Shown: positions 12,512 to 59,385, counted from the first letter of the stretch. The stretch is DNA of 64,000 nucleotides from Candidatus Spechtbacterales bacterium (GCA_040879145.1 JBBDKX010000035.1:1122-65121); one strand, 5' to 3'. Numbers and translations: made by a program. Notes: generated from the letters alone by a model not told the origin.

Positions 12512-13810
12512 CTACCTTATTATTGTTTGCTCTCTGTGAGGTCCTACAGAGATAAATTTTGCTTTTGTCTTCATTGCGTCCTCTATCGCGCGTACATAAG
12601 CGCGAGCCTTCTTTGGCAGACGGGAATATTTGGTAATTCCCGAAATATCACTATTCCAACCATCAACCGGACGCAAGGCGGCCTGAGAACCTTCTTCCAA
12701 ACCGCAGGATACATCTTCGCAAACTGCCTGTTCATGTTCGCTGCAATTTTTATAACCAATCCCCACATAAAACTGCGGTAAACTATGTAAGACGTCAATC
12801 TTTGTAACCGCAATTGATGTAAAATCATTCCGCCTGTTCGCGTAAGATAAAAGAGGAAGGTCCAGCCACCCACACGCGCGCGGACGCCCTGTTGTAGCTC
12901 CGTATTCTTTGCCCCATTCACGGAGTTTATTATCCATAGCTCCTTCAAGTTTTGTAGGAAAAGCACCGGGACCAACCCGCGTACTATACGCTTTTACAAC
13001 GCCTATGCGCTCGTCTATGCGATTTGCGGGTATACCCGACCCTTGAGACGCGGCAGCAATCGTACAGGCACTTGAAGTGCAAAAAGGATACGTTCCGTGG
13101 TCTATATCCAAAAGCATGGCCTGCGCGCCTTCCAAAAGTATATTAGACCCCCTGTTTAAATACGAGTCTATCTCATTTTCGGCATTACATATCAGCCCGC
13201 GAACCTGCTCCGCGTATTCCATAAATTCACGGTACATCACTGAGGGGTTTGGTATATCCCAGTGTCTGTATAAAATCTGTAGGATAAGTTCGTACTCATT
13301 GTATTGATCAAAAAACCTATCTCTAAAATCGGTTCTCAGCAAATCGCCCGCGCGAAAACCTTTGCGGGCATGCTTAGCCGCAAATACAGGACCCATTCCT
13401 CTTTTGGTAGTTCCTATTTTTTTCTTTGGAGAACGTTTTAGCTCTTCAGCTTCGTCCAATAACACATGCCAGGGCATAACAAGATGCGCTTTTTTGCTGA
13501 TAATAACATTGTTTACATTCAGGCCTCCGGATTTAAGCTCGCTTATCTCCTGGGCAAGAGTAGGTATATGAACCGCGGTTCCCGCACCTATTACGTTCAA
13601 CGTTCTACTGTTGAACACTCCGGCGGGAACAATGTGAAGCTTTGCCACACCTTCGGGCATATCTTTGGTATGCTCGTTTTCTATTGTATGCCCGGCATTA
13701 TTACCTCCGTTAAAACGAATTACCATGTCAGCATCCTGTGCTAAAAGGTCAACTATTTTCCCTTTTCCTTCATCGCCCCACTGGGTTCCAATTACTGCGG
13801 TTACGGGCAT
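12512..13810 (-). CDS. purA: adenylosuccinate synthetase
   Basis: QWGDEGKGK, GTTKRGMGP, GATTGRPRACGWLD motifs. Confidence 0.95.
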   Translation of the reverse strand: MPVTAVIGTQWGDEGKGKIVDLLAQDADMVIRFNGGNNAGHTIENEHTKDMPEGVAKLHIVPAGVFNSRTLNVIGAGTAVHIPTLAQEISELKSGGLNVNNVIISKKAHLVMPWHVLLDEAEELKRSPKKKIGTTKRGMGPVFAAKHARKGFRAGDLLRTDFRDRFFDQYNEYELILQILYRHWDIPNPSVMYREFMEYAEQVRGLICNAENEIDSYLNRGSNILLEGAQAMLLDIDHGTYPFCTSSACTIAAASQGSGIPANRIDERIGVVKAYSTRVGPGAFPTKLEGAMDNKLREWGKEYGATTGRPRACGWLDLPLLSYANRRNDFTSIAVTKIDVLHSLPQFYVGIGYKNCSEHEQAVCEDVSCGLEEGSQAALRPVDGWNSDISGITKYSRLPKKARAYVRAIEDAMKTKAKFISVGPHREQTIIR

Positions 13811-13921: not shown

Positions 13922-15397
13922 TTATTTGGGTCTCATTGTCGGAAACAGTATAGATTCACGCAAAGCATGCGTACCCGTTAAAAACGCGGTAATACGATCT
14001 ACTCCCATCCCAAAACCAAAGGCAGGAGGCATGCCGTACTCCAAAGCTTCCACAAAATCCTCGTCCATAAACTGCGCTTCATCGTCTCCTTTTTTGCGGA
14101 GTTTTTCCTGTTTTTCAAAAAATTCACGCTGGCGTACAGGATCATTCAACTCCGAATACCCCTTTACAAGCTCCCACCCCGCTATTGCAAGCTGAAAACT
14201 TGCGGCATACTCCGGATTATCCTCAAGCGGTTTCGCCAATGGAAGCATCTCGCTTGGATGGTGTATAACAAATGTCGGATCAGATATTTTAGGCAGGCAA
14301 TATTTTTTATATATAGCATCAGCTACTTCTGTTTTTGAATACACATCCTTTTTTATATCAACGCCAAGTTCCCCGGCCTTTTTCTTTAATGCTTCAAAAT
14401 CATAGTCATCATAATTTACATCAGCATATTTCTGTAAAAGTTCGTTAAACCCTATGCGCTCCCACGGTGTTTTAAAGTTTATTTTTTTACCTTCATACTC
14501 ATAAACTGTTTTTCCCACAACTTTTTTTGCAAGATTTTTAACAAGCCTCTCTGTAAGTTTCATACCCTCTTTATAGTCGGAATACGCCCAGTAAAATTCA
14601 AGCATTGTAAACTCCGGGTTATGCGAATAATCCACACCCTCATTCCTAAAATTCCTGCCAAGTTCATAAACCTTTTCCATACCTCCAACTAAAAGGCGTT
14701 TTAGATAAAGCTCCGGCGCTACGCGTAAATACATATCCATATTCAGAGCGTTTAAATGGGTTTCAAAAGGGCGCGCCATAGCACCCCCGGGAATGGTTTG
14801 CAACATGGGTGTTTCAACCTCCATAAAACCTTCTTTTTCCAAAAAATTACGGCATTCAGAAATTATGCGCGAGCGCGTTTCAAATATTTCGCGTGTATCA
14901 TCATTCATTAAAATATCCAGATATCTTTTGCGGTATCTTTGCTCAATATCTTTTAGTCCGTGCCACTTTTCAGGAAGCGGACGTATAGACTTTGCTATAA
15001 CATCAAACTTTTTAACATCCAGGGTTTTCTCTCCCCTTTTTGTTGTAAAAAGAGTACCTTCTATGTTTAAAAAATCTCCCACATCAAGCAGAGCTTCCAC
15101 GTCTTCATATATATTTTTACCTAAGCCATCCTCTCTAAAAGCAATTTGTATAGAACCGGAACCATCTTTTATATTCCCAAAGGTAAGTTTTCCGTGCTGG
15201 CGTATAGACATAAGACGACCGGACAGGCGCACCAGTTTTTCCGCTTTAGACAGCTTGGCAAAATCGCTCAAAAGCTCATGGGTTGCATGAGTGTTTTTTA
15301 CGCTTACAGGATAGGGATTGTGCTGTCTTTCAATAAGCACCTTACGCTTACTTAAACGATTTTTTATTATTTCTTTAAGTGTTCTTTTTTCTGTCAT
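13922..15397 (-). CDS. lysS: lysyl-tRNA synthetase (class II)
   Basis: OB-fold N-domain, motif 2 YELGRNFRNEG, motif 3 GMGVDRI. Confidence 0.95.
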   Translation of the reverse strand: MTEKRTLKEIIKNRLSKRKVLIERQHNPYPVSVKNTHATHELLSDFAKLSKAEKLVRLSGRLMSIRQHGKLTFGNIKDGSGSIQIAFREDGLGKNIYEDVEALLDVGDFLNIEGTLFTTKRGEKTLDVKKFDVIAKSIRPLPEKWHGLKDIEQRYRKRYLDILMNDDTREIFETRSRIISECRNFLEKEGFMEVETPMLQTIPGGAMARPFETHLNALNMDMYLRVAPELYLKRLLVGGMEKVYELGRNFRNEGVDYSHNPEFTMLEFYWAYSDYKEGMKLTERLVKNLAKKVVGKTVYEYEGKKINFKTPWERIGFNELLQKYADVNYDDYDFEALKKKAGELGVDIKKDVYSKTEVADAIYKKYCLPKISDPTFVIHHPSEMLPLAKPLEDNPEYAASFQLAIAGWELVKGYSELNDPVRQREFFEKQEKLRKKGDDEAQFMDEDFVEALEYGMPPAFGFGMGVDRITAFLTGTHALRESILFPTMRPK

Positions 15398-19083: not shown

Positions 19084-20145
19084 TTATTTAAGCCTGGGTG
19101 GCTTTTGATTGTAATTCATATCCACTAAAACTTCCCGTAACTGATCTATATTTTCAAGCACAACACCTGTTCCTCTAACAACGGCTGTCAAAGGGTCTTC
19201 GGCGATACGTACAGGCATCTGAGTCTCTTTTTGTATAAGCTCATCGAAACCGCGAAGTAAACTTCCGCCTCCCGCAAGAACGATTCCGCGCTCCATTATG
19301 TCGGCTAAAAGTTCTGGTGGAGTTTGTTCAACTGTACCCTTAATGGCGGTTGCCAAAGCATTAACTGAAGGTGTTAATGCTTCGCGAATATGCTTATCCT
19401 GAATTATTATTTCTTTTGGTAAACCTGTAATAAGGTCTCTTCCGCGCATAGGCATTGAGATTGTTTCTTCCAAAGGAAGTACGGATCCGGCCGCTATTTT
19501 AAGATTTTCAGCTGTCCTTTCTCCAAGAAGTAGGTTAAATTCTTCACGAGCGTAATTTACGATATCCTCATTTAACCTGTCTCCCGCAATGCGTAATGAA
19601 CGCGCAACCACTATACCTCCGAGAGATATTACAGCTACCTCGGTAGTACCTCCTCCTATGTCTATTATCATATTTCCCGAAGGCTCCTGAACATCGAGGC
19701 GCGCGCCAATTGCGGCAGCCATAGGCTCTTCTATTAAATACACCTCACGGGCTCCCGCGGCTTTTGCTGCATCTTCAACAGCGCGTTTTTCTACTTCGGT
19801 AACTCCCGATGGAATCCCTACAACAACACGCGGACGTGGAAGAAAGCGAAGTGGCTCAGAGTGAACTTTATCTATAAAATATTTAAGCATCTGCTGTGTT
19901 ATCTCAAAATCTGAAACCACGCCGTCCACCAAAGGACGTGAAGCTACAATATGAGCAGGTGTTTTACCCACCATTCTCCTGGCCTCCTCGCCTATAGCAA
20001 GAACACGCCCGGTTTTTTGGTTTATAGCGACAACAGATGGTTCGTTTATAGCTATTCCTTTTTTCCGAACATAAACAAGTGTATTTGCGGTACCAAGGTC
20101 TATTCCTATGTCTAGAGAAAAGGCTCCTAAAATTTTATTTAACAT
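19084..20145 (-). CDS. mreB: rod shape-determining protein MreB
   Basis: DLGTANTLVYV, GGGTTEVAVISLGG actin-fold motifs. Confidence 0.9.
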   Translation of the reverse strand: MLNKILGAFSLDIGIDLGTANTLVYVRKKGIAINEPSVVAINQKTGRVLAIGEEARRMVGKTPAHIVASRPLVDGVVSDFEITQQMLKYFIDKVHSEPLRFLPRPRVVVGIPSGVTEVEKRAVEDAAKAAGAREVYLIEEPMAAAIGARLDVQEPSGNMIIDIGGGTTEVAVISLGGIVVARSLRIAGDRLNEDIVNYAREEFNLLLGERTAENLKIAAGSVLPLEETISMPMRGRDLITGLPKEIIIQDKHIREALTPSVNALATAIKGTVEQTPPELLADIMERGIVLAGGGSLLRGFDELIQKETQMPVRIAEDPLTAVVRGTGVVLENIDQLREVLVDMNYNQKPPRLK

Positions 20146-24192: not shown

Positions 24193-24296
24193 TTAATACA
24201 TAATATACTTTATACAGCAATTTTTAAATGTTCCACTGCACCTACCTGTATGCCAATTGAAACATGAACCGGCAGGCAGGGTGAAACATTTAAAAA

Positions 24297-26512: not shown

Positions 26513-27541
26513 TTATTTCTTACTCATTACACTTCGCTTATAGACCTCCAAATTCTCAAGCGCTATTCCTGTGCCTTTTACTACGCACAAGAGAGGCTCG
26601 TCTGCAACATAAGCGGGTACGCCCGTTGCTTCCGATAACAACTCATCAAGATTTTTTAAAAGCGACCCGCCACCGGTCATAACCATTCCCTTATCCATAA
26701 TGTCTGCAGAAAGCTCAGGAGGAGTTTCGCGCAAAACAGATTTTACTGTGAGAACTATCTCTTTTAAGCGCTCGGATATGGCATTGGTTATTTCATTAGT
26801 CTTTACCTCAATATTTTTAGGCAGGCCTGATGTCATGTCGCGACCGCGCAACTGAAAGACTTCCTCGTCTTTAAGCGGAAGAGCGCTACCTATTGTTATT
26901 TTTATCTCCTCTGCGGTTCTTTCTCCAATGGCTAGATTGTACTGGCTCTTAATATAGCCCACAATGGCGCTGTCTATTTTGTCACCCCCAACGCGCGTTG
27001 AAGCGTTAGACACAATACCCCCCAGTGAAATAACAGCCACCTCGGTGGTGCCACCCCCTATATCCACAACCATGTTTCCGCTTGGTGAATTAATAGGTAT
27101 ACCCGCACCTATCGCTGCAAGTACAGGCTCTTTTACCACATAGGCGGCCTTGGCACCCGCATTCATAGCAGATTGCACTACAGCCCTTCTTTCTGTTGAG
27201 GTAATGCCTGCAGGAATAGATATCATTATTTCAGGTTTTTTAAGCCGCACCCTCCCTGACGCTTTATTTACGAAGTATCGAATCATAGATTCGGTTACTC
27301 TGTAATCGGCAATGACACCATCTTTCAATGGTCTGTGAGCAACTATGCTGTCAGGTGTCATGCCTATCATTTCTTTTGCCTCTTTACCAACAGCCAATAT
27401 GGTGTTGTCCCAAACAGATACCGCAACTACAGAGGGTTCATTCACGATTATTCCTCTTTTTGGCACATACACAAGAGAGTTTGCGGTGCCCAAATCTATT
27501 CCTATTTTTGATGGTGATAACATATGGTCGCTATGCTCCAA
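26513..27541 (-). CDS. MreB-like actin homolog (second paralog)
   Basis: IDLGTANSLVYV, GGGTTEVAVISLGG. Confidence 0.85.
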   Translation of the reverse strand: MEHSDHMLSPSKIGIDLGTANSLVYVPKRGIIVNEPSVVAVSVWDNTILAVGKEAKEMIGMTPDSIVAHRPLKDGVIADYRVTESMIRYFVNKASGRVRLKKPEIMISIPAGITSTERRAVVQSAMNAGAKAAYVVKEPVLAAIGAGIPINSPSGNMVVDIGGGTTEVAVISLGGIVSNASTRVGGDKIDSAIVGYIKSQYNLAIGERTAEEIKITIGSALPLKDEEVFQLRGRDMTSGLPKNIEVKTNEITNAISERLKEIVLTVKSVLRETPPELSADIMDKGMVMTGGGSLLKNLDELLSEATGVPAYVADEPLLCVVKGTGIALENLEVYKRSVMSKK

Positions 27542-30743: not shown

Positions 30744-30764
30744 GATATTTTATTCACTTTGTTC

Positions 30765-30894
30765 ATAAAAAGTATAGAGTATGCAGTATACAATATACAG
30801 GAGTGCTTTGTAATTAGCTTTGCTGAATACTCTATACTATATACTCTATACTTGAACGAGCGCGAAGCGTGAGTTTTAAGCTCGCTTCGCGAGT
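30765..30894. repeat. ~120-bp palindromic intergenic repeat, family A copy 1
   Basis: agtatagagtatgcagtatacaatatacaggagtgctttgtaattagctttgctgaatactctatactatatactctatacttgaacgagcgcgaagcgtgag. Confidence 0.8.
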
Positions 30895-33809: not shown

Positions 33810-33862
33810 GTTAGCTTTTTTTACGTTTTCTAATTCCTATTTCCTAAGCCCTAATTCCTGCG
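33810..33862. repeat. tttttttacgttttctaattcctaWttYctaa...ttcctgcgagc repeat (copy 1)
   Basis: cf. 34487..34545. Confidence 0.6.
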
Positions 33863-33874
33863 AGCTTTAGTGAG

Positions 33875-34317: not shown

Positions 34318-34356
34318 TTTGTCCCGATACCGCCCGAATCTTTGATTCGCCTGCCT
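34318..34356 (-). promoter_or_regulatory. conserved leader motif directly upstream of rpsK ATG (gcgaatcaaagattcgggcggtatcgggacaaaaaatt)
   Basis: same motif as upstream of proS; preceded by CCTGCCTGCC hairpin. Confidence 0.55.
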
Positions 34357-34486
34357 GCCGGTTTACATGCCGATTGGCATGCAGGCAGGCTCACAAAAAG
34401 TGAACAGTAAGCAGTGAACAATTAACAACAGGGCTCCGTTTTTTCTTTTCTACTGTTTCCTGTTCACTGTTTACTGTTATCTGCGA

Positions 34487-34545
34487 GCTTTAGTTTTTTT
34501 ACGTTTTCTAATTCCTAATTTCTAATTCCTAATTCCTGCGAGCCT
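34487..34545. repeat. tttttttacgttttctaattcc... repeat (copy 2)
   Basis: gagctttagtttttttacgttttctaattcctaatttctaattcctaattcctgcgagc. Confidence 0.6.
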
Positions 34546-35363: not shown

Positions 35364-35631
35364 AAAGTGACTATGTTGAACTCAAATCTATTAAACTCAG
35401 ACCTCTACAATGATAACAAAATAAAAAAAATAGGTCAACCCCCACACCAATTTATGGGATTTCTTAGCTACTATAATGAAATTATTGACGGTATAACAAA
35501 TTGGTAGTGGGGGTCAACCCCTATTTTTAATAGGTCCCTAGGCCTTTGGCTGGTGGCTAGGCGTAAAGCCGCCATCCCGGCTCTGCCTAGGGAGATCCCG
35601 GCCCGCCCGCGCGGGTCTAGGGACTTCGCTT

Positions 35632-35742
35632 CACGAAAAGTACAAAGTATACAGTATTTGATATGCAGGGGTGCTTTATAATTAGCTTTGCTTAATACTA
35701 TATACTGCATACTGTATACTTGAACGAGCGAAGCGAGCTTAA
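35632..35742. repeat. family A palindromic intergenic repeat copy 2
   Basis: cacgaaaagtacaaagtatacagtatttgatatgcaggggtgctttataattagctttgcttaatactatatactgcatactgtatacttgaacgagcgaagcgagc. Confidence 0.8.
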
Positions 35743-37693: not shown

Positions 37694-38986
37694 TTATTGG
37701 TCTTGTATTAGTTTCACCATACGGCTTAATGTTTTGGTTAATAAAGTATCTTTTTCTATTGAGATATGTAAAAGATGGTCCGCAATACCCGCCACAGAAA
37801 CAAGCTGAGAGTGAGAATTTACAGATTCATCTATTTTAATATTCTCAAACATTGCCGGATCCAAAATATGTATTTTAGGCGGTTTCAAAAAAGAAAGTTC
37901 ACGCTTCCACTTTCTTTTACGTATTATATCATCAATCAAAGGAATATGCCCACCGCCCCCATGAACAAATATCTCACCGGGAAGCAAGGTTGTCCGTGAA
38001 AACTCTTTCAATATCATTTCCAGTGCGCTCAAAAACAGTGAAATCTCTCCCTGCAAAATGTCCTCAACAACACCCAAAGCATTTCCGCTCAGGTTTCCGT
38101 TGCTATATCTGAGTTTTATATTTTCAGCCTCCCAAAACCCAATTTCAAAATGAGACGCAATACGGCGCGTAAAAGATTCTCCGCCAAAAGAAAAGGTTCT
38201 TATGTCCTCAAACTTGCCCTTTCTTGCCAAACTAACGCGCGTCGTCTTGCCGCCTATGTCTATAATAATACCTTCAAACTCTTCGCCATGTTTTCTACGC
38301 AAGGCGCTGAACACAGCATAGGGCTCATAAATAAGCGAGGTAAGATTGAATTTTAATTGCCGGGCAACCTCATCAAAAATATTTTTATAAAATATCGGTA
38401 AATACGCGTTAAACACACTAATATAAAGCTCTTCACCATCAAAACCTATGGGGTTTGTAACTTTATAGCCGTCTATTCTCACATCCTGAATTGAAGAATT
38501 TATAAGCAAAACGTCGGTTTCCGAGTACCCGCTATCTACTACAAACCTACGTCTTATATCTTCGTACGCCTTCAACTCCGCGTTGTGTATGGCGTTTTTC
38601 AACTCTCTCAAATCAATCTTTGCCTCAGGATTTTCCCGTTTATAAATATATGAAAAATTATGGCCGTAGACCATTTCCGAAGCCAGCCCTATTACTATAT
38701 CTTTCGTCCTGCCTGATCTCGCCTTGCGTCCACTAAAGATGCTGTCAAAAGCTCTTTTTACGGTAGAGGTTATCTGTTTAATATGTTCAACCTCATCTGT
38801 AGCGCCTGTGTTGTGAGTGTGTAACTCCTCGGCTACACGTAAAATAGTCGCCTCTTTAGACTGCTTGTTTATCTCAACAAGCGCAAGCTTTACACTGCTT
38901 CTTCCAAGATCAAGAACATATAAATTCTCATACTTTTTTGAGAACAAGTATTTAAAAAATTTCGGCTTTCGCAAAAGCTTTTTCAT
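37694..38986 (-). CDS. actin-fold ATPase of the FtsA/PilM family
   Basis: VLDLGRSSVKLALVE N-terminus, IIDIGGKTTRVSLARKG; 430 aa. Confidence 0.6.
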   Translation of the reverse strand: MKKLLRKPKFFKYLFSKKYENLYVLDLGRSSVKLALVEINKQSKEATILRVAEELHTHNTGATDEVEHIKQITSTVKRAFDSIFSGRKARSGRTKDIVIGLASEMVYGHNFSYIYKRENPEAKIDLRELKNAIHNAELKAYEDIRRRFVVDSGYSETDVLLINSSIQDVRIDGYKVTNPIGFDGEELYISVFNAYLPIFYKNIFDEVARQLKFNLTSLIYEPYAVFSALRRKHGEEFEGIIIDIGGKTTRVSLARKGKFEDIRTFSFGGESFTRRIASHFEIGFWEAENIKLRYSNGNLSGNALGVVEDILQGEISLFLSALEMILKEFSRTTLLPGEIFVHGGGGHIPLIDDIIRKRKWKRELSFLKPPKIHILDPAMFENIKIDESVNSHSQLVSVAGIADHLLHISIEKDTLLTKTLSRMVKLIQDQ

Positions 38987-43002: not shown

Positions 43003-43043
43003 AGAGCCGGCCACGACCGTAGTGTAATGTCAGATTGAAAATA
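43003..43043. repeat. cacgaccgtRgtgtaatgtcagattgaa direct repeat copy 1
   Basis: cf. 43860..43918; flank gene 43078..43791. Confidence 0.65.
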
Positions 43044-43072
43044 AAAAACAGACCTTCCGAAGGTCTGTTTTA
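43040..43072. terminator. bidirectional terminator
   Basis: aaaaaacagaccttccgaaggtctgtttta. Confidence 0.7.
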
Positions 43073-43077
43073 AAGAA

Positions 43078-43791
43078 CTAATTCGTTTCCGGTTCAATTT
43101 GCAGCTTCACACATGCTTTATCATACACGGCAGCAACTAAGCGACCGATAAGAGTTTTCCTTAACCTCGGCCATGCTTTTACTATCAAAGTGATAATAAA
43201 GGCCAACAAAGGCAAGCCGACAAAAGCTACAGCGCCCAAAGTAAGCAGCAGAGAACGCCAAGACTCAGCTGTCTGAGGAAGGAACGGTCCTTCGGCTTCA
43301 ACAAATAATCCTTCTGTAACGCCTTTGTATATAAGATAGGGAATAGCCACCACTAAAATAAGTATTGCGGGTAGCCACCAAGATAAAAACGCCACCAATT
43401 TCCAGTAAGTAGGGCAAATCCGAACTTCTTCGGGCACATCTTTAATAAATACTGTCCAGCCGCTATCGGTTACAATTTCTTTGTCCGGAGTGTAATTCTG
43501 GATAATCTTATACAGCCATGAACCCCTTGGCACCTGCCCTTTTTCGTTCAAAACGAAAAAAGTAGCAAATAGTAAAGCAACAGCCGGTATAAGCAGTAAC
43601 ACAACGACGACAACTGCAGCGAATAGCTTAGATCTAATATCTTCTATAAACAGAGGATCGCCGGGAAAATAACTATCATCAGCACCAACATACCTTGTCG
43701 GATGCCAATTCTGCCACAACCAAATAATTCCCACGTTTAAGAGCGCTATAAAGCCAACAAGCGATAATCTTGATTTGATCATTCCATTCAT
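43078..43791 (-). CDS. hypothetical polytopic membrane protein
   Basis: several hydrophobic helices; ORF track. Confidence 0.5.
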   Translation of the reverse strand: MNGMIKSRLSLVGFIALLNVGIIWLWQNWHPTRYVGADDSYFPGDPLFIEDIRSKLFAAVVVVVLLLIPAVALLFATFFVLNEKGQVPRGSWLYKIIQNYTPDKEIVTDSGWTVFIKDVPEEVRICPTYWKLVAFLSWWLPAILILVVAIPYLIYKGVTEGLFVEAEGPFLPQTAESWRSLLLTLGAVAFVGLPLLAFIITLIVKAWPRLRKTLIGRLVAAVYDKACVKLQIEPETN

Positions 43792-43859
43792 TCCATTTCC
43801 TTTCTGTCAAAGTAACTGCCGAAATTCTAACACAAAACATATAGTACGTCAATTTTTTC

Positions 43860-43918
43860 TAACCACAATCTGACATTACACCACGACCGTGGTGTAATGT
43901 CAGATTGAACAAAATAAA
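43860..43918. repeat. direct repeat copy 2, here as a perfect palindrome caatctgacattacacc-acgaccgt-ggtgtaatgtcagattg
   Basis: sequence comparison with 43003..43043. Confidence 0.65.
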
Positions 43919-45357: not shown

Positions 45358-46029
45358 TTACTTGGTAATATTGCTGATTAGCCACTCGGATAGTTCGTCC
45401 ATAAACTCAGGGTGTTTTTTAAAAATATCAGTACCATGACCGCCCTCCTCATAAATACGGGTCTTAACACGCTCTCCTCCGCAATCTGCTATTTCTCCTA
45501 CCGCTCTAAACGAATCTGGCACGTTTGGGTCGTCCTTTGTAGCAGCCATATATATCGCCTGACCGGCGCGTAATTTCTTAATCAAAGGCAGTGTTTCTAT
45601 GCCGTGATAATCAAACCCGGGAGAAAGAGCAAAACCGACCTGCGATTGCGGGTTTTGCGCCATATACTGTATAGACAAGTTTGCTCCTATAGACGCGCCA
45701 CCGACAACAATATTTTTAATTTCCACACCTTTATTTATAAAAAAATCCTGCGCAGCCAAAACATCAAACATTTTTTCCTGTTGCTGTTTGCTTGAAAATT
45801 CCCTGTAATCCAACTTCCCTCCTTGTGTACTTTCACCATGCCCGCGCTCGTCTATCGCTAAAACCTGAAATCCTTTTTCCAACAATAAAGACGCAAATTC
45901 ATCCCAACTCTCTTTGGTTGAAGGCATCATATGAAGCAAAATAACAGCAGGCGATGTTTCATCGCCTGCCGGATAGTAATCTCCTACTATTTTTATATTA
46001 TCTTTAGTTGTAAGCGTAACCTTTTCCAT
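45358..46029 (-). CDS. alpha/beta-fold hydrolase (dienelactone hydrolase/esterase-like)
   Basis: GxSxG nucleophile elbow GGASIG; catalytic Asp/His candidates. Confidence 0.7.
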   Translation of the reverse strand: MEKVTLTTKDNIKIVGDYYPAGDETSPAVILLHMMPSTKESWDEFASLLLEKGFQVLAIDERGHGESTQGGKLDYREFSSKQQQEKMFDVLAAQDFFINKGVEIKNIVVGGASIGANLSIQYMAQNPQSQVGFALSPGFDYHGIETLPLIKKLRAGQAIYMAATKDDPNVPDSFRAVGEIADCGGERVKTRIYEEGGHGTDIFKKHPEFMDELSEWLISNITK

Positions 46030-46032
46030 AAA

Positions 46033-47724
46033 TTATTCCCCAATCACCCCTATGTCTTTTAACAGATCCCTCAAACCCTCATTATCCGGGCCTTTTTTAT
46101 TTTTAGAATTTTTCTTTTCAACAGGAGGTTTACTTTCATTTTGAGGTTTTTTTTGTTGTTGTCCATCTCCAGCTTGAGGTTTTTTAGCCGGCGGGCCGTC
46201 GCCACGCTGAATAGGGCTTTGTCCTCGCGAAGGCGGGCGATACGGCTTCTGTTGGGGCGAGTCTGTCTGTGCACTACGCGAAGGCGGGCCGTCGCCACGC
46301 TGAAGCGAGCTTTGGCCTCGCGAAGGCGGGCGGTTTTTATTTAAATTGGGCGCTGGAAACTTCTGCATTGCCTCAGACATGCTTATTGGCTTTTCATTTT
46401 CTTTTTGCTCCTGCGCTTTTTTAGCAGGCACAGTAACCGGCCTCATCTTTGTGCTGACATCCCATTCTTGTATAACCTTCTCCATTTCTTGCCGTGAAGT
46501 TCCGTACTTATCGCGGGAACGCTTTATTATTTCTTCTGTCAATCTCTCCGCATGCCCGGGCTCAAGCGGGGCTATTGTGCGAGCGGCAAACGCGCGGTGT
46601 GTAATTCCGTCTATCATTAGCTTTAAAGCTATATTAAACTTGGGCAAGTTCACCAGATCGTCTACCATAAACTCGGGTGTAAACTCTTTCTCTATATGTT
46701 CTGCATCCTCAGCGCCTACCCGGAATGTAATAAACGTGCCTATATTACCGAATACGGCATCGCGCACTTCTTCATCCATTTGTGCTATATATTGGTGTGC
46801 CAAAATTAAGCAAAGGCGATACTTTCTCGCTTCTGAAAGTATTCCCTCAAAAGCCTCGGAGGCAAAGTTCTGGAACTCATCAACATAAAGAAAGAAGTCA
46901 CGTCTTTGGGCTTCGGGAGTGTCTATCCTGCTCATGGCCGCCAAATAAAGCTTTGTTATCGCCATAGCTCCAAGTAAACGGCTGTTATCCTCTCCGATGC
47001 GTCCCTTTGAAAGGTTCATAATAAATATCTTCCCGTCATCCATTATCTTTCTCATGTCTATGGTAGATACTTTCTGGCCCACAATATTACGAATTAAAGG
47101 AGCTGTTGTAAACTGCCCGATCTTATTTTGTATGGAAGCTGTAGCTTCAGACGCAAGCCGGTCTGAGTATTTCGCAAACTCTTCAAGCCAAAAGGAGCGC
47201 ACAATAGGGTCTTTCACATAGCTTAAAACCTCATTCCTGAAATTCTTATTAGCCATCATACGGTTAACATCCAAAAGTGTCGCGTCGGGATATTCAAGAA
47301 GAGCTAAAATTGTATTATTCAAAATATATTCCATTCTGGCGCTCCACACATCCACCCAAATTTTCTTAAACACACCCATAAGCCCGCTTGCCACAAGGTG
47401 TCTCTGGTTATATCCGACATCTTCAAGAAGATTTAAACCCATCGGAGCATCAGCATCAGCAGGATTGAAATACACAACATCGTCCATTCGTTCGGGTGGC
47501 ACAAAACTCAAAAGGGTCTCAGCAAATTCACCGTGCGGGTCTAAAATACCGAGGCCGTTCCCGTTTATAATATCCTGAATCGCCATATTCTGTATCATGT
47601 TCGTCTTACCCATTCCAGTCTTTCCTATGATGTACATATGGCGGCGGCGGTCATCAGTTTTTATGCCAAACCTGTCGCTGCGCCCCCTGTAATTCAATTG
47701 TCCAAAATAATTTATTTCTTCCAT
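46033..47724 (-). CDS. FtsK/HerA-superfamily P-loop ATPase (VirD4/TraD/VirB4-like, AAA_10/DUF87-like) with disordered repeat-containing C-terminus
   Basis: Walker A IIGKTGMGKT, ILDPHGEF, Walker B FFLYVDEFQNF, RKYRLCLILAHQ; ATG at 47724 (ORF-track N-extension is encoded by a CCTGCCTGCC hairpin). Confidence 0.65.
   Translation of the reverse strand: MEEINYFGQLNYRGRSDRFGIKTDDRRRHMYIIGKTGMGKTNMIQNMAIQDIINGNGLGILDPHGEFAETLLSFVPPERMDDVVYFNPADADAPMGLNLLEDVGYNQRHLVASGLMGVFKKIWVDVWSARMEYILNNTILALLEYPDATLLDVNRMMANKNFRNEVLSYVKDPIVRSFWLEEFAKYSDRLASEATASIQNKIGQFTTAPLIRNIVGQKVSTIDMRKIMDDGKIFIMNLSKGRIGEDNSRLLGAMAITKLYLAAMSRIDTPEAQRRDFFLYVDEFQNFASEAFEGILSEARKYRLCLILAHQYIAQMDEEVRDAVFGNIGTFITFRVGAEDAEHIEKEFTPEFMVDDLVNLPKFNIALKLMIDGITHRAFAARTIAPLEPGHAERLTEEIIKRSRDKYGTSRQEMEKVIQEWDVSTKMRPVTVPAKKAQEQKENEKPISMSEAMQKFPAPNLNKNRPPSRGQSSLQRGDGPPSRSAQTDSPQQKPYRPPSRGQSPIQRGDGPPAKKPQAGDGQQQKKPQNESKPPVEKKNSKNKKGPDNEGLRDLLKDIGVIGE
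46190..46332. repeat. two ~50-bp direct repeats inside the ATPase coding region (encode RPPSRGQSxxQRGDGPP twice)
   Basis: ggcgggccgtcgccacgctgaa...cctcgcgaaggcgggcg at 46190-46239 and 46283-46332. Confidence 0.75.
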
Positions 47725-47766
47725 GATTTTTGTTTCGCCTGCCTGCCGGCAGGCAGGGCTCCGCCT

Positions 47767-47895
47767 CACGAAAAGTATAAAGTATACAGTATTCAGTATA
47801 TAGGAGTGCTTTATAATTAGCTTTGCTTAATACTATATACTAAATACTGTATACTTGAACGAGCGAAAGGTGAGTTCCAAGCTCGCTTTGCGAGC
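47767..47895. repeat. family A palindromic intergenic repeat copy 3
   Basis: cacgaaaagtataaagtatacagtattcagtatataggagtgctttataattagctttgcttaatactatatactaaatactgtatacttgaacgagcgaaaggtgag. Confidence 0.8.
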
Positions 47896-49128
47896 TTATG
47901 TAGGCAATCCACTTGGTGGTTCCGATGTTCTTGAGGGCACTCTCGGCATAAGCGGGGCTCTTACTACCCTTCCAGGGAAATGATACATCGTAGCTATTTC
48001 TTCAGTACTCAAAACGTAGGGACTGGTGGCAAAATCAAGATACCTCCCTTTATAAGCTGCGAGTATATTGCGTTTGCGAATATAATTTCTAAACTTTTTA
48101 AAAAGAATAAGAGAACCTTTTGGAAAAGAACCTGAATGCGGACGAAAGCTATTTAAACCGCTAAACTGTCTAAGGTAGCCGTGCAAACCCGCGAGATGTT
48201 CACCGTGCCAGACATCTTTTCTTGCCACATAAACAGCGCGGAGCATGGTATTAAATTTAATTTTAGAATCTTTTATCTCAATTTTTTCTATATTCATACG
48301 CTCTCCTGGTGTCATTCGTGTCATATCACTTTGTGTTTTTTCAGGTTTTTTTTTCTGCCCGCCTCCACCAAAAGCGTTAAAAATACTTGTAAGCGGGTCT
48401 ACATATTTTGTACCCGAGTCCCTGCCTACCAGTTTATCTATCTCACTCTTTGCCTTGCCCTCAACTTCGCTAAGAACAGGGCTTATGACAACCTGCATCC
48501 ACATATGCTCCCCTTCTTCCATTTTAGAAACAAGTTCCGCGTACTGAGATATCGGGTCCATACGCCTGTCTTCATCCAAATCTTCAAACTCAATATATGT
48601 TCTTATAGGATAAACCCAACTTCTGTTAAGTGTATATTCCGCACCCCATACCTCATAACTCTCTCCGGGCACATCGGCAGGCAAATCCGCGGTATAATCC
48701 GGGACTTCTTCTATCGCGGCGTCAGAATACTGTGAATATACTTTAGATTCAACAAAATTACGCTGCGATCTTTTGCAGCGTATATAAAAATGCAACCTTC
48801 CGGCTGTTCCCACCATCTCAAGACTAAACCGGTCAATTACAACACCCTCTGTCCACTTTTCGCGGCTGGTTAGCGGACTCCAAACTCCGTGCAAGCCCTC
48901 AAGCACATTCTCCATAGCTTTGGGGGTTTTTAGAACATCCGGGGGTAAAGATACCTCGAGCACTATCCAGTCCAGTTTTTTAGAATATTGAGACCTTTTA
49001 TTGCGCAGATACAAAGGATGAACTTTTGAAAACAGGTAAAACGGAACTATGACCCACCAAGTGGCCTTAAATAAGTTCCATAAAATTAAACCTGCAAATT
49101 GTAGTATTTCTACCAGTGTAGAAGGCAC
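47896..49128 (-). CDS. hypothetical protein with N-terminal TM anchor (410 aa), upstream partner of the ATPase
   Basis: TM LVEILQFAGLILWNLFKATWWVIVPFYLF; GGGG/KKK-rich linker; no family recognised. Confidence 0.5.
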   Translation of the reverse strand: MPSTLVEILQFAGLILWNLFKATWWVIVPFYLFSKVHPLYLRNKRSQYSKKLDWIVLEVSLPPDVLKTPKAMENVLEGLHGVWSPLTSREKWTEGVVIDRFSLEMVGTAGRLHFYIRCKRSQRNFVESKVYSQYSDAAIEEVPDYTADLPADVPGESYEVWGAEYTLNRSWVYPIRTYIEFEDLDEDRRMDPISQYAELVSKMEEGEHMWMQVVISPVLSEVEGKAKSEIDKLVGRDSGTKYVDPLTSIFNAFGGGGQKKKPEKTQSDMTRMTPGERMNIEKIEIKDSKIKFNTMLRAVYVARKDVWHGEHLAGLHGYLRQFSGLNSFRPHSGSFPKGSLILFKKFRNYIRKRNILAAYKGRYLDFATSPYVLSTEEIATMYHFPGRVVRAPLMPRVPSRTSEPPSGLPT

Positions 49129-49140
49129 AACAGTAGCTCG

Positions 49141-49240
49141 CTTCGCGAGCAGGTTATAGGTTTTAGATTTCAGGTATCAGACTATCGCTTAATTTTTGAG
49201 TCTAACACCTATTACCTAACACCTATTACCTATCTTATAA
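49141..49240. repeat. aggttttag / taggtatcag / acacctattacctaac x2 leader repeat
   Basis: related segments at 22730..22800 and 60115..60195. Confidence 0.5.
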
Positions 49241-49243
49241 GGG

Positions 49244-50338
49244 TTATGCCAGGTAGTATTTATTGCCTTCGTCTTTCTTAAAGTGAGTTCTGTTCTGTAA
49301 ATTGAGCAAAATTGTATTTTTTTGCACTTTTCTCTGGTCCATTACACGATCCACCAAGACTTCTCTTTCTACCGGCTTTCCCTCTTCTTTTAATATGTTC
49401 ATTATAACATCTTTTACTGTACCAGGCATATAACCCCAGTTCGCAAGTGCGTAGATCCCCCGACCTATTAATACAAATCTTTCATCCTTTATAAGTTCGT
49501 TATGAACAGTTTGAGGATGAGTTTTTTTAGAATTTTTAAACCTAAAAGGAGCGTCGTCTATTCTGTGCGCGAGTTCTCTAAAATGAAGAGGATCTCCATG
49601 TCTGTGTAACACAAGAAATACCTTGTCTCTTACTCCGCGAGGTGTAATCTGGGGCCATTCAGCTAATCCCCACTGATTAAACGGACCAAGCTCTATCTTC
49701 TTAGAAGCACCTAAAAGTATATGTAGATTATCTTCAGTAACAGGCAGGAATTCTCTATTCGCCTCCTCAGCTTTAACCATAAGCTCTTCAGCATCTATGG
49801 GTTCGCCTGTCTTTTCCATGCTTTCAACAATGCCGGTCAAAAGTACTTTAACCTTTTCAGCACTTTCTTTGTTTACAGCCCAACTTGCCTGAAAATCATC
49901 GCTTTCTTTAATCTTTACAAAAGAGTCATTCAAAGCCAAAAGCAATGAGAGATATGGACGATGGGCATCAGAAGCTAAAGTTTCTACAAGAACTTCCTCT
50001 GACACAACACCGCAGTGTTCATTTAAATAATTATTTATCTCGTCAAAAGCGGGGGTAAGAAATTCATACTCAGCAGAATTTCTTATCTTCAAATAAGACG
50101 CCTCCTCTATCTGTCGCACCCTCTCCCTTGTAATATTATAAGCACCCCCGATCTTCTCGAGAGTTTGTCTCTCTCCACCTGTACCAATGCCGTGCCTTCG
50201 CGCGAGTATTGTGCTGTTTCTATCAGACAACACTCCAAGCGTTTTTCCTATAACAGGCTTTACATTGAGCTTTTTTACTTGAGTTGCTTGTGGCATATAA
50301 GTTAGTGGTTTACTTTTTACTTGTGTTTGACTTTTCAT
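49244..50338 (-). CDS. protein with sigma-70 region 4-like HTH near N-terminus, remainder unknown
   Basis: GERQTLEKIGGAYNITRERVRQIEEASYLKIRN; alternative start Met15 (50296). Confidence 0.55.
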   Translation of the reverse strand: MKSQTQVKSKPLTYMPQATQVKKLNVKPVIGKTLGVLSDRNSTILARRHGIGTGGERQTLEKIGGAYNITRERVRQIEEASYLKIRNSAEYEFLTPAFDEINNYLNEHCGVVSEEVLVETLASDAHRPYLSLLLALNDSFVKIKESDDFQASWAVNKESAEKVKVLLTGIVESMEKTGEPIDAEELMVKAEEANREFLPVTEDNLHILLGASKKIELGPFNQWGLAEWPQITPRGVRDKVFLVLHRHGDPLHFRELAHRIDDAPFRFKNSKKTHPQTVHNELIKDERFVLIGRGIYALANWGYMPGTVKDVIMNILKEEGKPVEREVLVDRVMDQRKVQKNTILLNLQNRTHFKKDEGNKYYLA

Positions 50339-50423: not shown

Positions 50424-51332
50424 TTAAGCTTTTCTCAAGCGCTCTGCCCAGCTAACAAGAATAGGGCTTGCTATAAAGATAGAAGAGTACGTTCCTATGG
50501 CAATACCTACAATTAATGTGAAGATGAAATTATGTATTGTTTCTCCCCCAAAAAAGAATACGGCAAAAAGAACAAGTAGTGTTGTTAAAGATGTGTTCAA
50601 AGATCTGACAACACTCTCTTTAACACTTGCCGAAACAAGTTCGTTAAAGTCTTTTTGGTTGCCAAAACGAAGTATATTCTCTCTCACCCTGTCAAACACA
50701 ACAATAGTGTCGTTTACAGAGTAACCCACTATGGTAAGCAGGGCCGCAATAAAAGGAACACCCACCTCTGTACCTTTAAAATGGGTAAATATTGCAAAAA
50801 ATCCAACCGTTATAATAACGTCGTGAAACAACGTAATTAAAGCGATGACACCATATCGCACGGAACCCAAAGGGTACGATATTCTGCGGAATGCCCACGC
50901 GACATAAACAACAATCATAGCAAGCACAAGCCCCATGGCCCAAGCGGATTTGCTTATTGTTTCACGGCCTATCACAGGCCCCACGCTTTGAAACTGTTTC
51001 TCTTCTACTTCAGCTTCACTTGCCTCGGTTATTTTAGCTAAAATCTCCTGGTGTGTTTCCTCATCAACATCGCGAAAACGCAAAATAAGAGAGTCGTCTC
51101 CTCCCTGTTGAATACTAATGCTTCCCAAATCAATATCACTCAAAGCGCTTGTCACATCCTCACGCGAAAGTATTGTTATATTGCCATCCTCATCCGGTAA
51201 AAAACCGACCTCCATCAAAGAGCCGCCTTTGAAATCTATACCTAAAGGCAACTTAAATACCGCGACTCCTATAATACTCACAGTTATAAGTACAGTAGAT
51301 AATATATAAAATATTTTTCTCTTTTCTATCAT
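50424..51332 (-). CDS. secF: protein translocase subunit SecF
   Basis: SecD/SecF family TM core, SVNDTIVVFDRVREN. Confidence 0.9.
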   Translation of the reverse strand: MIEKRKIFYILSTVLITVSIIGVAVFKLPLGIDFKGGSLMEVGFLPDEDGNITILSREDVTSALSDIDLGSISIQQGGDDSLILRFRDVDEETHQEILAKITEASEAEVEEKQFQSVGPVIGRETISKSAWAMGLVLAMIVVYVAWAFRRISYPLGSVRYGVIALITLFHDVIITVGFFAIFTHFKGTEVGVPFIAALLTIVGYSVNDTIVVFDRVRENILRFGNQKDFNELVSASVKESVVRSLNTSLTTLLVLFAVFFFGGETIHNFIFTLIVGIAIGTYSSIFIASPILVSWAERLRKA

Positions 51333-51341
51333 AATTAATAG

Positions 51342-52883
51342 TTAACGCGACCAGATAAATTTAATGGTTTCAAGTTTGCCTGTTAAAAACAACTTCATAA
51401 GATACTTTGTTACAACCATCGCGGAGAACATGCTAACAACAATACCCAGCCCCAGCGTTAAAGCGAACCCCTGCACGAAACTTGTTGAAAACCAAAACAG
51501 TATTACAGCAGTGAGCAGGGTTGATATGTTTCCGTCTCTTATTGAAGGCCACGCTCTTTCAAACGCCTTATCTACAGCATAAGACACATTTTCAACATCT
51601 CTTAACTCTTCCCGCAAACGCTCAAAAATAAGCACATTGGCATCTACGGCCATTCCAATAGACAGTATAAGACCTGCTATTCCGGCAAGTGTGAGTGTAA
51701 TAGGTATTGTCTTTATAAGCGCCAGGATAAACGCTATGTACATCAAAAGAGAGACAGCCGCTAAAAGACCGCTAAAACGATACATAATAACTATAAACGC
51801 GAGAACTGCCAAAACAGCTATGGCTCCCGCACGCAGGCTTGCCGCAAGCGACTCTTCACCGAGCGCGGCGCCTATTCTCTGTTGGGCTATAATGCTTATC
51901 GGAACAGGAAGCGCTCCCGCGTTTAGGTTTCGTACGAGCTCTCTTGCCTCATCTACAGTAAAGTTTCCGGTTATAACAGCTTGTCCGCCCGCTATTGCCT
52001 GGTTTACTGTAGGAATAGAAACAGGTGTTCCATCAAGATATATAGCAACTACAGAACCGATATTTCTCTTTGTTATTTCCTCAAACAACTCCGAACCCTC
52101 TTCATTAAACTGCAACCCTATTTGTAGCTCTCCGGTCTGCGGATGTGTCGTCACACTAGCCCTTTCTAAAAATTGTCCCGTGAGACTTGTACTTCTAAAA
52201 CACGGGTCTTCTCCGAGTATCTGGGTAAATGTCGCTATTCCCTGAGTATTGGCGCCGCTACAAATACTTGCAATCTGTTGGTCGCTAATCTCTCCTTGTT
52301 CTTCCACAAATCCGGATAAAACCTGAGACAGCGCCTGTTTTTGTTCTTCAAAAGGTCTTACCTCTTTGAACTCCAAAAACGGAGTCTGTCCTATTTGTTC
52401 TATGGCCTTATCCGGGTCGCTTATTCCCGCAAGTTCAACTATAAGGCGTGATGAATCATCACCCTGCTCTATTTGCACCACAGGTTCTGAAACCCCAAGG
52501 AAGTTAACTCGTCTTTCTATCGCGTCGCGTAAAGATTCCATAGCATCCTTCTGGTCGCTTTCTCTTATGCCGGAGAGATTGGCTTCATATACCAGGTGGA
52601 TGCCACCCTGCAAATCAAGACCTAAAGAGTAAGGACTTTCAGAGAATTTAGGAACGCGTGCAAAATTATCAATGGCGCGTAAAACTCCCCACTTGTCATA
52701 CTGTCCCACGTACCGGTTTGCATCTACAGCTTCCAGTTTAGGGTTTGACCAATCCGCAAACTGGTTCCAGTATTTAGGGTAATCTAAATTAGCCGCAAAA
52801 AATGCGGCAATCAAAATTAGAAATACAAATATCCAAGTTTGTCCTCTCTTTGTTGGTTTACGAAAAAGTCGCTTCAAAAACAT
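51342..52883 (-). CDS. secD: protein translocase subunit SecD
   Basis: GLDLQGGIHLVYE periplasmic domain, C-terminal 6 TM; ATG at 52883 (ORF track TTG start 52937). Confidence 0.9.
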   Translation of the reverse strand: MFLKRLFRKPTKRGQTWIFVFLILIAAFFAANLDYPKYWNQFADWSNPKLEAVDANRYVGQYDKWGVLRAIDNFARVPKFSESPYSLGLDLQGGIHLVYEANLSGIRESDQKDAMESLRDAIERRVNFLGVSEPVVQIEQGDDSSRLIVELAGISDPDKAIEQIGQTPFLEFKEVRPFEEQKQALSQVLSGFVEEQGEISDQQIASICSGANTQGIATFTQILGEDPCFRSTSLTGQFLERASVTTHPQTGELQIGLQFNEEGSELFEEITKRNIGSVVAIYLDGTPVSIPTVNQAIAGGQAVITGNFTVDEARELVRNLNAGALPVPISIIAQQRIGAALGEESLAASLRAGAIAVLAVLAFIVIMYRFSGLLAAVSLLMYIAFILALIKTIPITLTLAGIAGLILSIGMAVDANVLIFERLREELRDVENVSYAVDKAFERAWPSIRDGNISTLLTAVILFWFSTSFVQGFALTLGLGIVVSMFSAMVVTKYLMKLFLTGKLETIKFIWSR

Positions 52884-52937
52884 ACCTTGAATATGATAAT
52901 TAAGTTTACAAAGAAAATCAAGGGGGTTCATCCCCAA

Positions 52938-53012
52938 GCCGGTTCATTTTAGCCGGTCGGACTCTTTCTTCCGACCCCTTTACTTCCAACCTTACTATAA
53001 GTCCTATTCTTC
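52938..53012 (-). promoter_or_regulatory. promoter-like module with TA(A/T)AAT box, hairpin ggtcggaagaaaNagtccgacc and ATAGGAC 9-bp repeats, upstream of secD
   Basis: near-identical module at 53715..53813 upstream of ssrA. Confidence 0.5.
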
Positions 53013-53285: not shown

Positions 53286-53643
53286 TGGTGGAGGTGCCGG
53301 GAATTGAACCCGGGTCCGGCGTAATATTCATAAGCGTTTTAGTTTACGTGCGTTGACTCCGTAAAATTTCGGAAGGGTTATACAGAGACAGATTCACCTT
53401 TCCTATCCGTTGTTCAGTGTCCCTTGCAAAGCACTTCGGAAAAAGCTTTGCTTCGGCAAGCACTCTGGTTCTTCTTAGCTTAGAATGCGTGGGCTAAGAA
53501 GCTGGTTGCTCTTTCAGGCGGCAGCCAGGAGGCCTCTGCTATTTGTGGCAGTTATATGTTTCCAGCGACGGTTTACGAGCACACGCTGGTTTCTCGGCAC
53601 GAGTTCTTAGTTTCAACGACACCGTCGAGACCAATTCACCCCC
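53286..53643 (-). ncRNA. ssrA: tmRNA (SsrA), one-piece, CCA encoded
   Basis: 5' GGGGGUGAAUUGGUCUCGACG..., 3' ...GGACCCGGGUUCAAUUCCCGGCACCUCCACCA; acceptor stem pairs. Confidence 0.9.
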
Positions 53644-53714: not shown

Positions 53715-53813
53715 TCAGTTGCCGGTTCATTATAGCCGGTCGGACTATTTCTTCCGACCCCTTTACTTCCAATCATCCTATAGGTCCTATTCGTCCTATA
53801 GGTCCTATTCTTC
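53715..53813 (-). promoter_or_regulatory. promoter-like module (TATAAT box + hairpin) with four ATAGGAC 9-bp tandem repeats, ~95 nt upstream of tmRNA 5' end
   Basis: ggaagtaaaggggtcggaagaaatagtccgaccggctataatgaaccggc; gaataggacctataggacgaataggacctataggat. Confidence 0.5.
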
Positions 53814-59232: not shown

Positions 59233-59252
59233 AGATTTTGTTCGCTAACGCT

Positions 59253-59385
59253 CACGAAAAGTATAAAGTATTCAGTATACAGGGGGTGCTTTGTAATTAG
59301 ATTTGCTGAATACTCTATACTATATACTGCATACTTGAACGAGCGTGAAACATAAGTTCTAAGCTTGCATGGCGAAGCGTCCGCT
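59253..59385. repeat. family A palindromic intergenic repeat copy 4
   Basis: cacgaaaagtataaagtattcagtatacagggggtgctttgtaattagatttgctgaatactctatactatatactgcatacttgaacgagcgtgaaac. Confidence 0.8.

Follow-up and report, generated by a model that had tools for sequence, protein, structure and literature searches.

The stretch analysed here (the window, 64 000 nucleotides; GCA_040879145.1, JBBDKX010000035.1:1122-65121) is part of the chromosome of a Candidatus Spechtbacterales bacterium (Patescibacteria) and carries, on its minus strand, two adjacent genes for an ATPase related to the type IV coupling proteins (T4CPs) and for a partner protein of the Pfam family DUF8128. Both co-directional open reading frames (ORFs) were located where a sequence-only reading of the same DNA had placed them, the DUF8128 gene at 47896-49128 (410 aa, GTG start) and the ATPase gene downstream of it at 46033-47724. 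The ATPase ORF is open to a GTG at 47769; as the family consensus start is MxxxINFFG (56 homologues) and the window protein begins MEEINYFG, the start was assigned to the ATG at 47724, which gives a protein of 563 aa with ~33 residues before Walker A instead of the N-terminus of ~45 residues estimated earlier. A third gene, here called sigHARE (49244-50338, minus strand, 364-aa ORF), opens the conserved block of three genes to which the pair belongs.

The ATPase and the DUF8128 protein

The ATPase is 100% identical to an NCBI protein bearing the usual T4CP-type name, and at least 8000 homologues were found (52-79% identity in the top 120). It consists of a T4CP-type P-loop motor domain (residues 1-427; 46444-47724, minus strand), in which an all-alpha domain (helices 105-230 in the AlphaFold2 model, the core of which is confident) is inserted into the nucleotide-binding domain, and of a C-terminal tail (46033-46443, minus strand) which ends in a short conserved helix. 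Pfam matches above the cut-offs were obtained to TrwB_AAD_bind (6.7e-14; 52 bits against a cut-off of 20.5), DUF87 (5.8e-9, over the gathering cut-off) and TraG-D_C (8.7e-6). The hallmarks picked out in the sequence-only reading (GKTGMGKT, ILDPHGE, DEFQNF and RKYRLCLILAHQ) are present and invariant in 56 homologues, as are Walker A (GKTGMGKT), the extended Walker B (YVDEFQNF) and the HQ motif. Placement of the protein in the VirD4/TrwB-HerA superfamily was likewise borne out by Pfam and Foldseek: a Foldseek search with the model returned TrwB at the top (E = 1e-13, TM-score 0.60-0.64), followed by Sulfolobus HerA, DotL, Cag-beta, DndH-C and the VirB4 C-terminal domain (4ag6, 5e-10). Sequence similarity to solved structures was marginal. 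The Pfam models AAA_10 and CagE_TrbE_VirB gave no match, TIGR00929 reached E = 0.064, FtsK_SpoIIIE was not matched at E <= 0.1 and FtsK structures were absent from the top 50 fold matches; every NCBIfam cut-off for T4CP, VirB4 and HerA models lies far above the scores of the ATPase. There is no transmembrane segment (highest 19-residue Kyte-Doolittle hydropathy 1.06). By its motifs and its model, the protein is a soluble, TrwB-fold P-loop motor with intact catalytic motifs.

The tail is predicted to be disordered, as had been proposed (predicted local distance difference test, pLDDT, <50 for residues 427-545), and holds the two 50 nt direct repeats described earlier (92% identical; 46190-46239 and 46283-46332), which encode RPPSRGQS..QRGDGPP twice, with units at residues 465 and 496. 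Most homologue tails contain a CxxC-x17-CxxC zinc ribbon (PF23477; pattern found in 34 of 68 loci) that has been lost from the window ATPase and its closest Spechtbacterales relatives. The zinc-ribbon part of the tail is occupied in this genome by the Pro/Gly/Arg-rich unit of 17 residues, which was recently duplicated.

The partner is 100% identical to NCBI WDZ40_03830, from a Candidatus Spechtbacterales metagenome-assembled genome, which carries a precomputed PF26449 (DUF8128) assignment, as do most of 99 partner homologues; the earlier statement that it has no recognisable domain is corrected accordingly. It was without a match in PADLOC, NCBIfam and Pfam scans (the Pfam copy that was scanned lacks the PF26449 model), 92 DUF8128 members gave only noise against the same Pfam copy, and a DUF8128 profile found nothing among PDB sequences. 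Its only family matches are DUF8128 and, weakly, PHROG 5156, neither of known enzymatic function. A profile search of 1.84 billion representatives yielded 4034 DUF8128 clusters at 50% identity, the top 150 of which are all stand-alone proteins of ~400-535 aa. In the AlphaFold2 model (pLDDT 91, predicted TM-score 0.88) an N-terminal hydrophobic helix (~residues 9-33) is followed by a K/R-rich stretch, alpha/beta domains and a conserved C-terminal EELATxYHFPG...EPPxxLP. This helix, already noted in the sequence-only reading, was seen in both the model and the hydropathy profile; it is the sole hydrophobic stretch (Kyte-Doolittle 1.38) and is followed by five K/R residues, a pattern suggestive of a membrane anchor of N-out, C-in topology whose body is cytoplasmic.

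Genomic context and plasmid homologues

Neighbourhoods were counted in 80 loci kept from at least 576 DUF8128-relative hits in GTDB species genomes; nearly all have Patescibacteria-type titles (the others being one entered as Gammaproteobacteria and a few simply as 'bacterium'), and the cultured Minisyncoccus archaeiphilus is included. In 75 of the 80 loci the DUF8128 gene is followed directly downstream by the ATPase gene on the same strand; the gap between them has a median of 21 nt, and some pairs overlap by 1-8 nt. Identity is 48-67% for the ATPase, which is far more conserved, and 31-57% for the partner. The pairwise distance matrices of the two families are correlated (r = 0.77; partial r given SecF 0.62). 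Immediately 5' of the DUF8128 gene, on the same strand and at a median gap of 30 nt, sigHARE is found in 72/80 loci, and it stays beside DUF8128 even in loci from which the ATPase has moved away. Its partial correlations are 0.19 with DUF8128 and 0.07 with the ATPase; since it does not co-evolve with the pair, its link to the pair was taken to be positional only. The genes upstream of the block, secF (50424-51332) and secD (51342-52937), both on the minus strand, are syntenic neighbours (SecF in 58/80 and SecD in 56/80 related loci), and the order SecF - sigHARE - DUF8128 is kept in M. archaeiphilus. SecD and SecF are genomic context, with no functional link to the pair implied. In M. archaeiphilus (NZ_AP038758, 7363-10857) the DUF8128 and ATPase genes are separated by an inserted gene, the 1164-aa product of which has a prepilin-type N-terminus.

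The pair is thus a core, syntenic, chromosomal operon of the Patescibacteria, not an island, and it was apparently inherited vertically across the phylum. The sequence-only reading had placed it in an otherwise housekeeping region. The housekeeping character of the surroundings holds over the whole 64 kb, which encodes ribosomal proteins, RpoA, aminoacyl-tRNA synthetases, two MreB paralogues, a penicillin-binding protein, ribosome recycling factor, GreA, SecA, an AddA-like helicase-nuclease, tmRNA and six tRNAs; the pair is itself part of the conserved chromosome and no odd insert. The two-gene functional module proposed earlier is supported: its genes are adjacent in 75/80 loci, co-evolve and are fused elsewhere. 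That proposal had omitted the third conserved gene at 49244-50338.

The product of this third gene matched the Pfam models Sigma70_r4 (2e-9) and HARE-HTH (1.6e-10), and in a profile search against PDB it matched region 4 of primary sigma factors (RpoD sigma-4, 8e-18). More than 7000 homologues, typically of ~340-350 aa, were found; the named sources are Patescibacteria and some entries are labelled RNA polymerase (RNAP) delta subunit. The true start is likely the second Met, at 50296, giving 350 aa, and by its domains the protein looks like an uncharacterised RNAP-binding factor. A relationship to the Replic_Relax protein encoded beside the fused ATPases described below was considered and rejected, the two being unrelated and sigHARE containing a genuine sigma region 4.

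A search of annotated plasmids with the partner gave one match, on Priestia megaterium pFDU301A, directly upstream of and in frame with the match to the ATPase. Here Walker A is preceded, within one ORF, by a DUF8128-like stretch (hhalign probability 99%, E = 8e-18). The fused gene is broken twice in frame (13539-13768 and 14250-15193); one of the interruptions, of ~940 nt, falls right after Walker B (YVDE). An intron, an insertion sequence or an assembly error could be the cause. The 'plasmid' itself is 1.08 Mb long and almost unannotated, and a reverse transcriptase of the group-II-intron type is encoded nearby. An intact fused protein, WP_121549396 (886 aa), is encoded by the B. subtilis plasmid NZ_CP032854 (24.7 kb): residues 54-322 are DUF8128-like (hhalign probability 99%, E = 6e-18) and the ATPase follows from ~330, with a motor match of 173 bits and ~29% identity to the window ATPase. 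The gene is followed by genes for a Replic_Relax relaxase-like protein, TcpC, TcpE and a separate AAA_10 VirB4-like ATPase and, to judge from this gene order, it stands where the coupling-protein gene of a Tcp-type conjugation cluster lies. PHROG 5156 was matched colinearly by the two window proteins, the partner aligning to profile positions 77-199 (3e-5), the ATPase to positions 407-812 (8e-63). The fusions (B. subtilis, Priestia, PHROG 5156) therefore share with the window pair the same two modules, DUF8128-like and DUF87/T4CP ATPase, in the same order. They differ in being single polypeptides, borne on plasmids in the examples examined, whereas the window pair is split, chromosomal and core, lacks a relaxase and lies behind a sigma-4/HARE-HTH gene.

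A split form was found on the haloarchaeal plasmid pHTS138 of Haloterrigena, within a gene cluster of the conjugation type, where a 399-aa DUF8128-like ORF (hhalign probability 97.5%, E = 6e-12) overlaps the start of a gene for a 1034-aa T4CP with a TraM-recognition domain. It resembles the window pair in that the DUF8128-like gene lies directly 5' of the ATPase gene; it differs in its archaeal plasmid host, its much longer ATPase and its position next to a gene for a 1099-aa conjugal transfer protein, and the 399-aa protein has no obvious N-terminal hydrophobic helix by eye. The order ATPase then Replic_Relax also occurs on Staphylococcus and Streptomyces plasmids. In the plasmid ATPases of Staphylococcus, Streptomyces, Rhodococcus and Sulfolobus the N-terminal regions were undetected or marginal with the DUF8128 hidden Markov model, and the fusion is therefore not generalized to these four genera. 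The hosts of the plasmid relatives of the ATPase (Firmicutes, Actinobacteria, haloarchaea and Sulfolobus) match the MPF-FATA class, from which the type IV secretion systems (T4SSs) of Patescibacteria are reported to derive (PMC12102498). The closest ATPase relative in the plasmid collection (40% identity, 395 aa) is encoded on an alphaproteobacterial plasmid of Sulfitobacter mediterraneus (NZ_CP081110, 9986-11173); it is a motor only and stands alone amid recombinase and transposase genes, with no DUF8128-like gene annotated beside it. The fusions are regarded as the decisive evidence, of the Rosetta-stone kind, that the pair forms one unit.

A probable split coupling motor and its alternatives

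The pair is probably a two-part translocase of the T4CP (VirD4/TrwB-like) type which was split from a conjugation coupling motor and is now a core chromosomal pair of the Patescibacteria. DUF8128 would tether the ATPase to the membrane and organize it, and the ATPase would form a hexamer by analogy with TrwB; the former domain junction may lie where DUF8128 now ends in EPPxxLP and the ATPase begins. Using ATP, the motor would pass a nucleic acid or a nucleoprotein on to a channel in the membrane, a substrate of this kind being suggested by the zinc ribbon of most homologues and by the DNA-binding gene in the operon. The likeliest channel would be a relaxase-less T4SS encoded elsewhere on the chromosome. 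Published counts of T4CP homologues in the phylum (PMC12102498, given below) agree with this proposal, and the best fold match of DUF8128, to TrwK/VirB4 (E = 3e-5), was also counted in its favour. A minimal device for DNA translocation was one of the two options in the sequence-only reading; it fits the ancestry of the pair, given the location of fused or split homologues within conjugation clusters, and its DNA substrate is as yet an inference.

Compared with TrwB, VirD4 and TraD, the window ATPase shares the nucleotide-binding domain and the all-alpha domain, and it too has a disordered tail, which could recruit a partner. Those proteins have an N-terminal transmembrane domain of their own, and their genes accompany those of a relaxase or of a T4SS. 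Neither applies to the window ATPase; its anchor would apparently be supplied in trans by the separate 410-aa DUF8128 protein with its large alpha/beta domain. The 'orphan' T4CP homologues of Patescibacteria counted by Quinonero-Coronel et al. (2025; PMC12102498) are almost certainly the same gene population as the window ATPase. No conserved partner or operon is mentioned for these orphans in the available part of that account, to which DUF8128, sigHARE, the co-evolution and the fusions are added here.

Several observations weigh against a split coupling motor. The partner helix is only moderately hydrophobic, so that its insertion into the membrane is a prediction. The NCBIfam T4CP cut-offs were not reached by the ATPase (conju_CD1115, 39.3 bits against 250; TraD models, 20-34 bits against 366-648). 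A Pfam scan of the larger ORFs of the window found no integrase, relaxase, phage or other T4SS gene, and no VirB4-like gene was found in its 64 kb by tblastn. The sequence-only reading had asked whether the ATPase would group with conjugative VirD4 proteins within a T4SS: its distant relatives (~25-30% identity) do lie in conjugative clusters, whereas around its orthologues (48-67%) no VirB4-like gene was detected within ~6 kb in any of the 80 loci by tblastn, a weak test in which relaxases were not searched for. The conservation of sigHARE beside the pair is unexplained by a coupling model. According to PMC12102498, the t4cp homologue of S. epibionticum is non-essential and the T4SS essential, which counts against an obligatory role in the T4SS if that gene is an orthologue. 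Finally, the likeness of DUF8128 to VirB4 concerns the fold only. A PDB fold search with the DUF8128 model gave TrwK/VirB4 for each of the ten best matches (E = 3e-5 to 4e-3, probability 0.97-1.0), but all ten are the same protein and the TM-scores are ~0.35. The part matched was identified as the VirB4 N-terminal domain because the list holds no RecA-like ATPase and no structure of the VirB4 C-terminal domain alone. With hhalign, DUF8128 gave negative results against TrwK alone and against the N-terminal domain of the VirB4 (Tcp-type) encoded on the B. subtilis plasmid, and a probability of <1% against an alignment of 11 proteobacterial VirB4 N-terminal domains built from plasmids. A local alignment of VES..YAQYP with LEAGYWAQLP was dismissed as a link between DUF8128 and VirB4, having no statistical support. 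The relation is a lead from modelling, not a result.

The chief rival is a motor exapted for a housekeeping role independent of T4SSs, namely a nucleic-acid transaction at the membrane such as DNA uptake in transformation, FtsK-like clearance of the chromosome at division or an RNAP-linked process with the sigma-4/delta-like neighbour. It arises because T4CP homologues are widespread yet rarely near virB4: in PMC12102498, 5,713 VirD4-type homologues are counted in 2,918 of 3,035 Patescibacteria genomes, with just 148 close to virB4, VirB4 occurs in fewer genomes (2,417), and exaptation of the T4CP homologues is raised and left open by the authors themselves. The very high conservation of the ATPase for an accessory secretion component, the stable synteny with the housekeeping genes secDF and with sigHARE, and the zinc ribbon in most homologue tails point the same way. 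Direct evidence for any given alternative process is lacking, however, sigHARE does not co-evolve with the pair, and the fused and split homologues examined in context lie in conjugation clusters. Exaptation is considered the less likely course of events, if one to be kept in mind. A similarly low likelihood is given to a bolder proposal, in which the pair would be no secretion accessory but a phylum-wide relaxase-less nucleic-acid translocase, derived from a conjugative coupling ATPase split into anchor and motor and used for housekeeping (DNA import for nucleotide scavenging, chromosome clearance at division or a membrane-coupled step with the sigma-4/delta-like protein), and DUF8128 a true homologue of the VirB4 N-terminal domain; if so, the DUF8128-ATPase family would be an evolutionary bridge between the VirB4 and T4CP ATPases. 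It is distinctly improbable that the pair is a split VirB4-type ATPase, with DUF8128 as the equivalent of VirB3 or of the VirB4 N-terminal domain and the motor as an assembly or energizing ATPase and not a substrate receptor. The ten TrwK/VirB4 fold matches to the N-terminal domain and the match of the ATPase to 4ag6 would fit, and in comparison with VirB3/VirB4 (TrwM/TrwK) of R388 the succession of membrane helix, N-terminal domain and RecA-like ATPase is reminiscent of VirB3-VirB4 fusions. Against this, the best match of the ATPase is TrwB, Pfam gives TrwB_AAD_bind and TraG-D_C and not AAA_10 or CagE, the TM-score of DUF8128 is low, no sequence relation of DUF8128 to proteobacterial or Tcp-type VirB4 N-terminal domains was detectable, and plasmids with the fused form also encode a separate AAA_10 VirB4, the fused gene adjoining a relaxase-like gene; the window motor is nearer to the T4CPs.

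In this genome the pair does not form a defence system and does not belong to a mobile element. An anti-phage pair of an effector and a HerA-like ATPase, the other option of the sequence-only reading, had been suggested by comparison with SIR2-HerA and DUF4297-HerA; the ATPase does belong to the same superfamily as the motors of these systems and of MADS (mad8), with HerA structures among its fold matches, weak PADLOC matches to HerA models and a better one to mad8 (3e-15). The HerA matches score <=34 bits and cover P-loop segments only, the NCBIfam anti-phage HerA models reached ~15 bits against cut-offs of 800-850 (HerA_antiphage 15.5 against 800), and the partner matched nothing in PADLOC and no domain, enzymatic or other, in the Pfam scan. 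The pair is without an effector domain, evidence of a HAS-barrel, a PADLOC-related partner or a defence-like distribution, being core and syntenic with secDF (75/80 genomes) and not patchy. A search of a phage collection gave no match, IMG/VR gave one marginal match over residues 354-410 only, and there is no defence-island context, which makes a HerA-type defence pair very unlikely. Scarcely any likelihood is left, too, for a remnant or cargo of an integrated conjugative element. Distant homologues are plasmid-borne and conjugative, and palindromic repeats lie on either side of the partner gene, but the gene order and the housekeeping neighbours recur in dozens of divergent Patescibacteria, the GC content is unremarkable, no integrase, relaxase or other transfer gene was seen among the larger ORFs of the window and no VirB4-like gene in the 64 kb, and the repeats belong to a genome-wide intergenic family.

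Patescibacteria are ultra-small, host-dependent bacteria that account for a large part of bacterial diversity. The single genetically tractable species studied so far requires its T4SS to grow on the host, and no coupling protein or relaxase is recognized in that locus (PMC10633639). With the pair as a split coupling motor, the orphan T4CP homologues, thousands of which are scattered over the chromosomes of the phylum (PMC12102498), would be one half of a conserved, co-evolving two-protein unit, and DUF8128 would be the detached N-terminal domain of conjugative coupling ATPases from monoderms and archaea, which would give this family an ancestry and a likely role. The pair is then a concrete candidate complex in cultivable strains (Southlakia, Minisyncoccus), for which the Firmicutes plasmid proteins are possible tractable models. 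It was already known that the ATPase family exists, having been annotated and counted, and that DUF8128 is a Pfam family of unknown function. The searchable literature, the coverage of which is incomplete, yielded no account of DUF8128 as a partner, of the operon of three genes or of the fused homologues on plasmids; no paper was found with the term DUF8128, and the papers on T4SSs and Patescibacteria that were searched for the term did not mention it.

Spacers, repeats and other features of the window

The spacer between the partner and ATPase genes (47725-47895, minus strand) is 171 nt long and contains a copy (47756-47895) of a repeat family, D1, as well as a GCTCGCTTTGCGAGC hairpin (47881-47895) right after the DUF8128 stop codon; its RNA fold has an energy of -67.8 kcal/mol (z = -7.9). 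Since the median spacer in related loci is 21 nt, the D1 copy was interpreted as an insertion into the operon spacer. Family D1 comprises four palindromic, AT-rich intergenic copies (30753-30864, 35621-35732, 47756-47895 and 59236-59347) of ~112-140 nt with 61-89% identity to the reference copy, each able to form a long hairpin with short GC hairpins beside it. Upstream of the partner, the spacer (49129-49243, minus strand) is 115 nt long, against a median of 30 nt elsewhere, and holds a long AT-rich hairpin and a GCTCGCTTCGCGAGC hairpin (49136-49150) that ends 7 nt 5' of the GTG start of the partner (RNA fold -42.6 kcal/mol, z = -6.2). The sequence-only reading had the pair flanked by repeats of a single family, A. 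The copy at 47756-47895 is a true family member; the element at 49141-49240 does not align with D1 and has only the architecture in common, an AT-rich hairpin with GCTCGC-N3-GCGAGC. This exact hairpin occurs only twice in the 64 kb (47881-47895 and 49136-49150; 0.01 expected), flanking the partner ORF. The spacer elements, like family D1 as a whole, look like genome-specific insertions of the REP (repetitive extragenic palindrome) or MITE (miniature inverted-repeat transposable element) type.

The GC-rich palindrome CCTGCCTGCCGGCAGGCAGG and its variants are found in intergenic regions at ~47738-47757 (20 nt, just before the start of the ATPase gene), 24241-24280 and 34350-34389. A further repeat family, D3, which ends in CTGCGAGC, lies between ribosomal-protein genes (33816-33865, 34439-34488 and 34494-34543). 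A direct repeat of 75 nt (91% identical) is placed just upstream of secD (52938-53012) and just upstream of the tmRNA gene (53721-53795; gene at 53286-53643, minus strand) and may be a duplicated leader or promoter element. Direct and inverted repeats of 38 nt (43011-43048, 43855-43892 and 43881-43918) bracket a 237-aa ORF (43078-43791) which has several hydrophobic stretches and no Pfam match. The next gene past the ATPase encodes an alpha/beta hydrolase (45358-46029, minus strand). The two MreB paralogues lie within 8 kb of each other (19084-20145 and 26513-27541), and a PilM/FtsA-like gene was located at 37694-38986.

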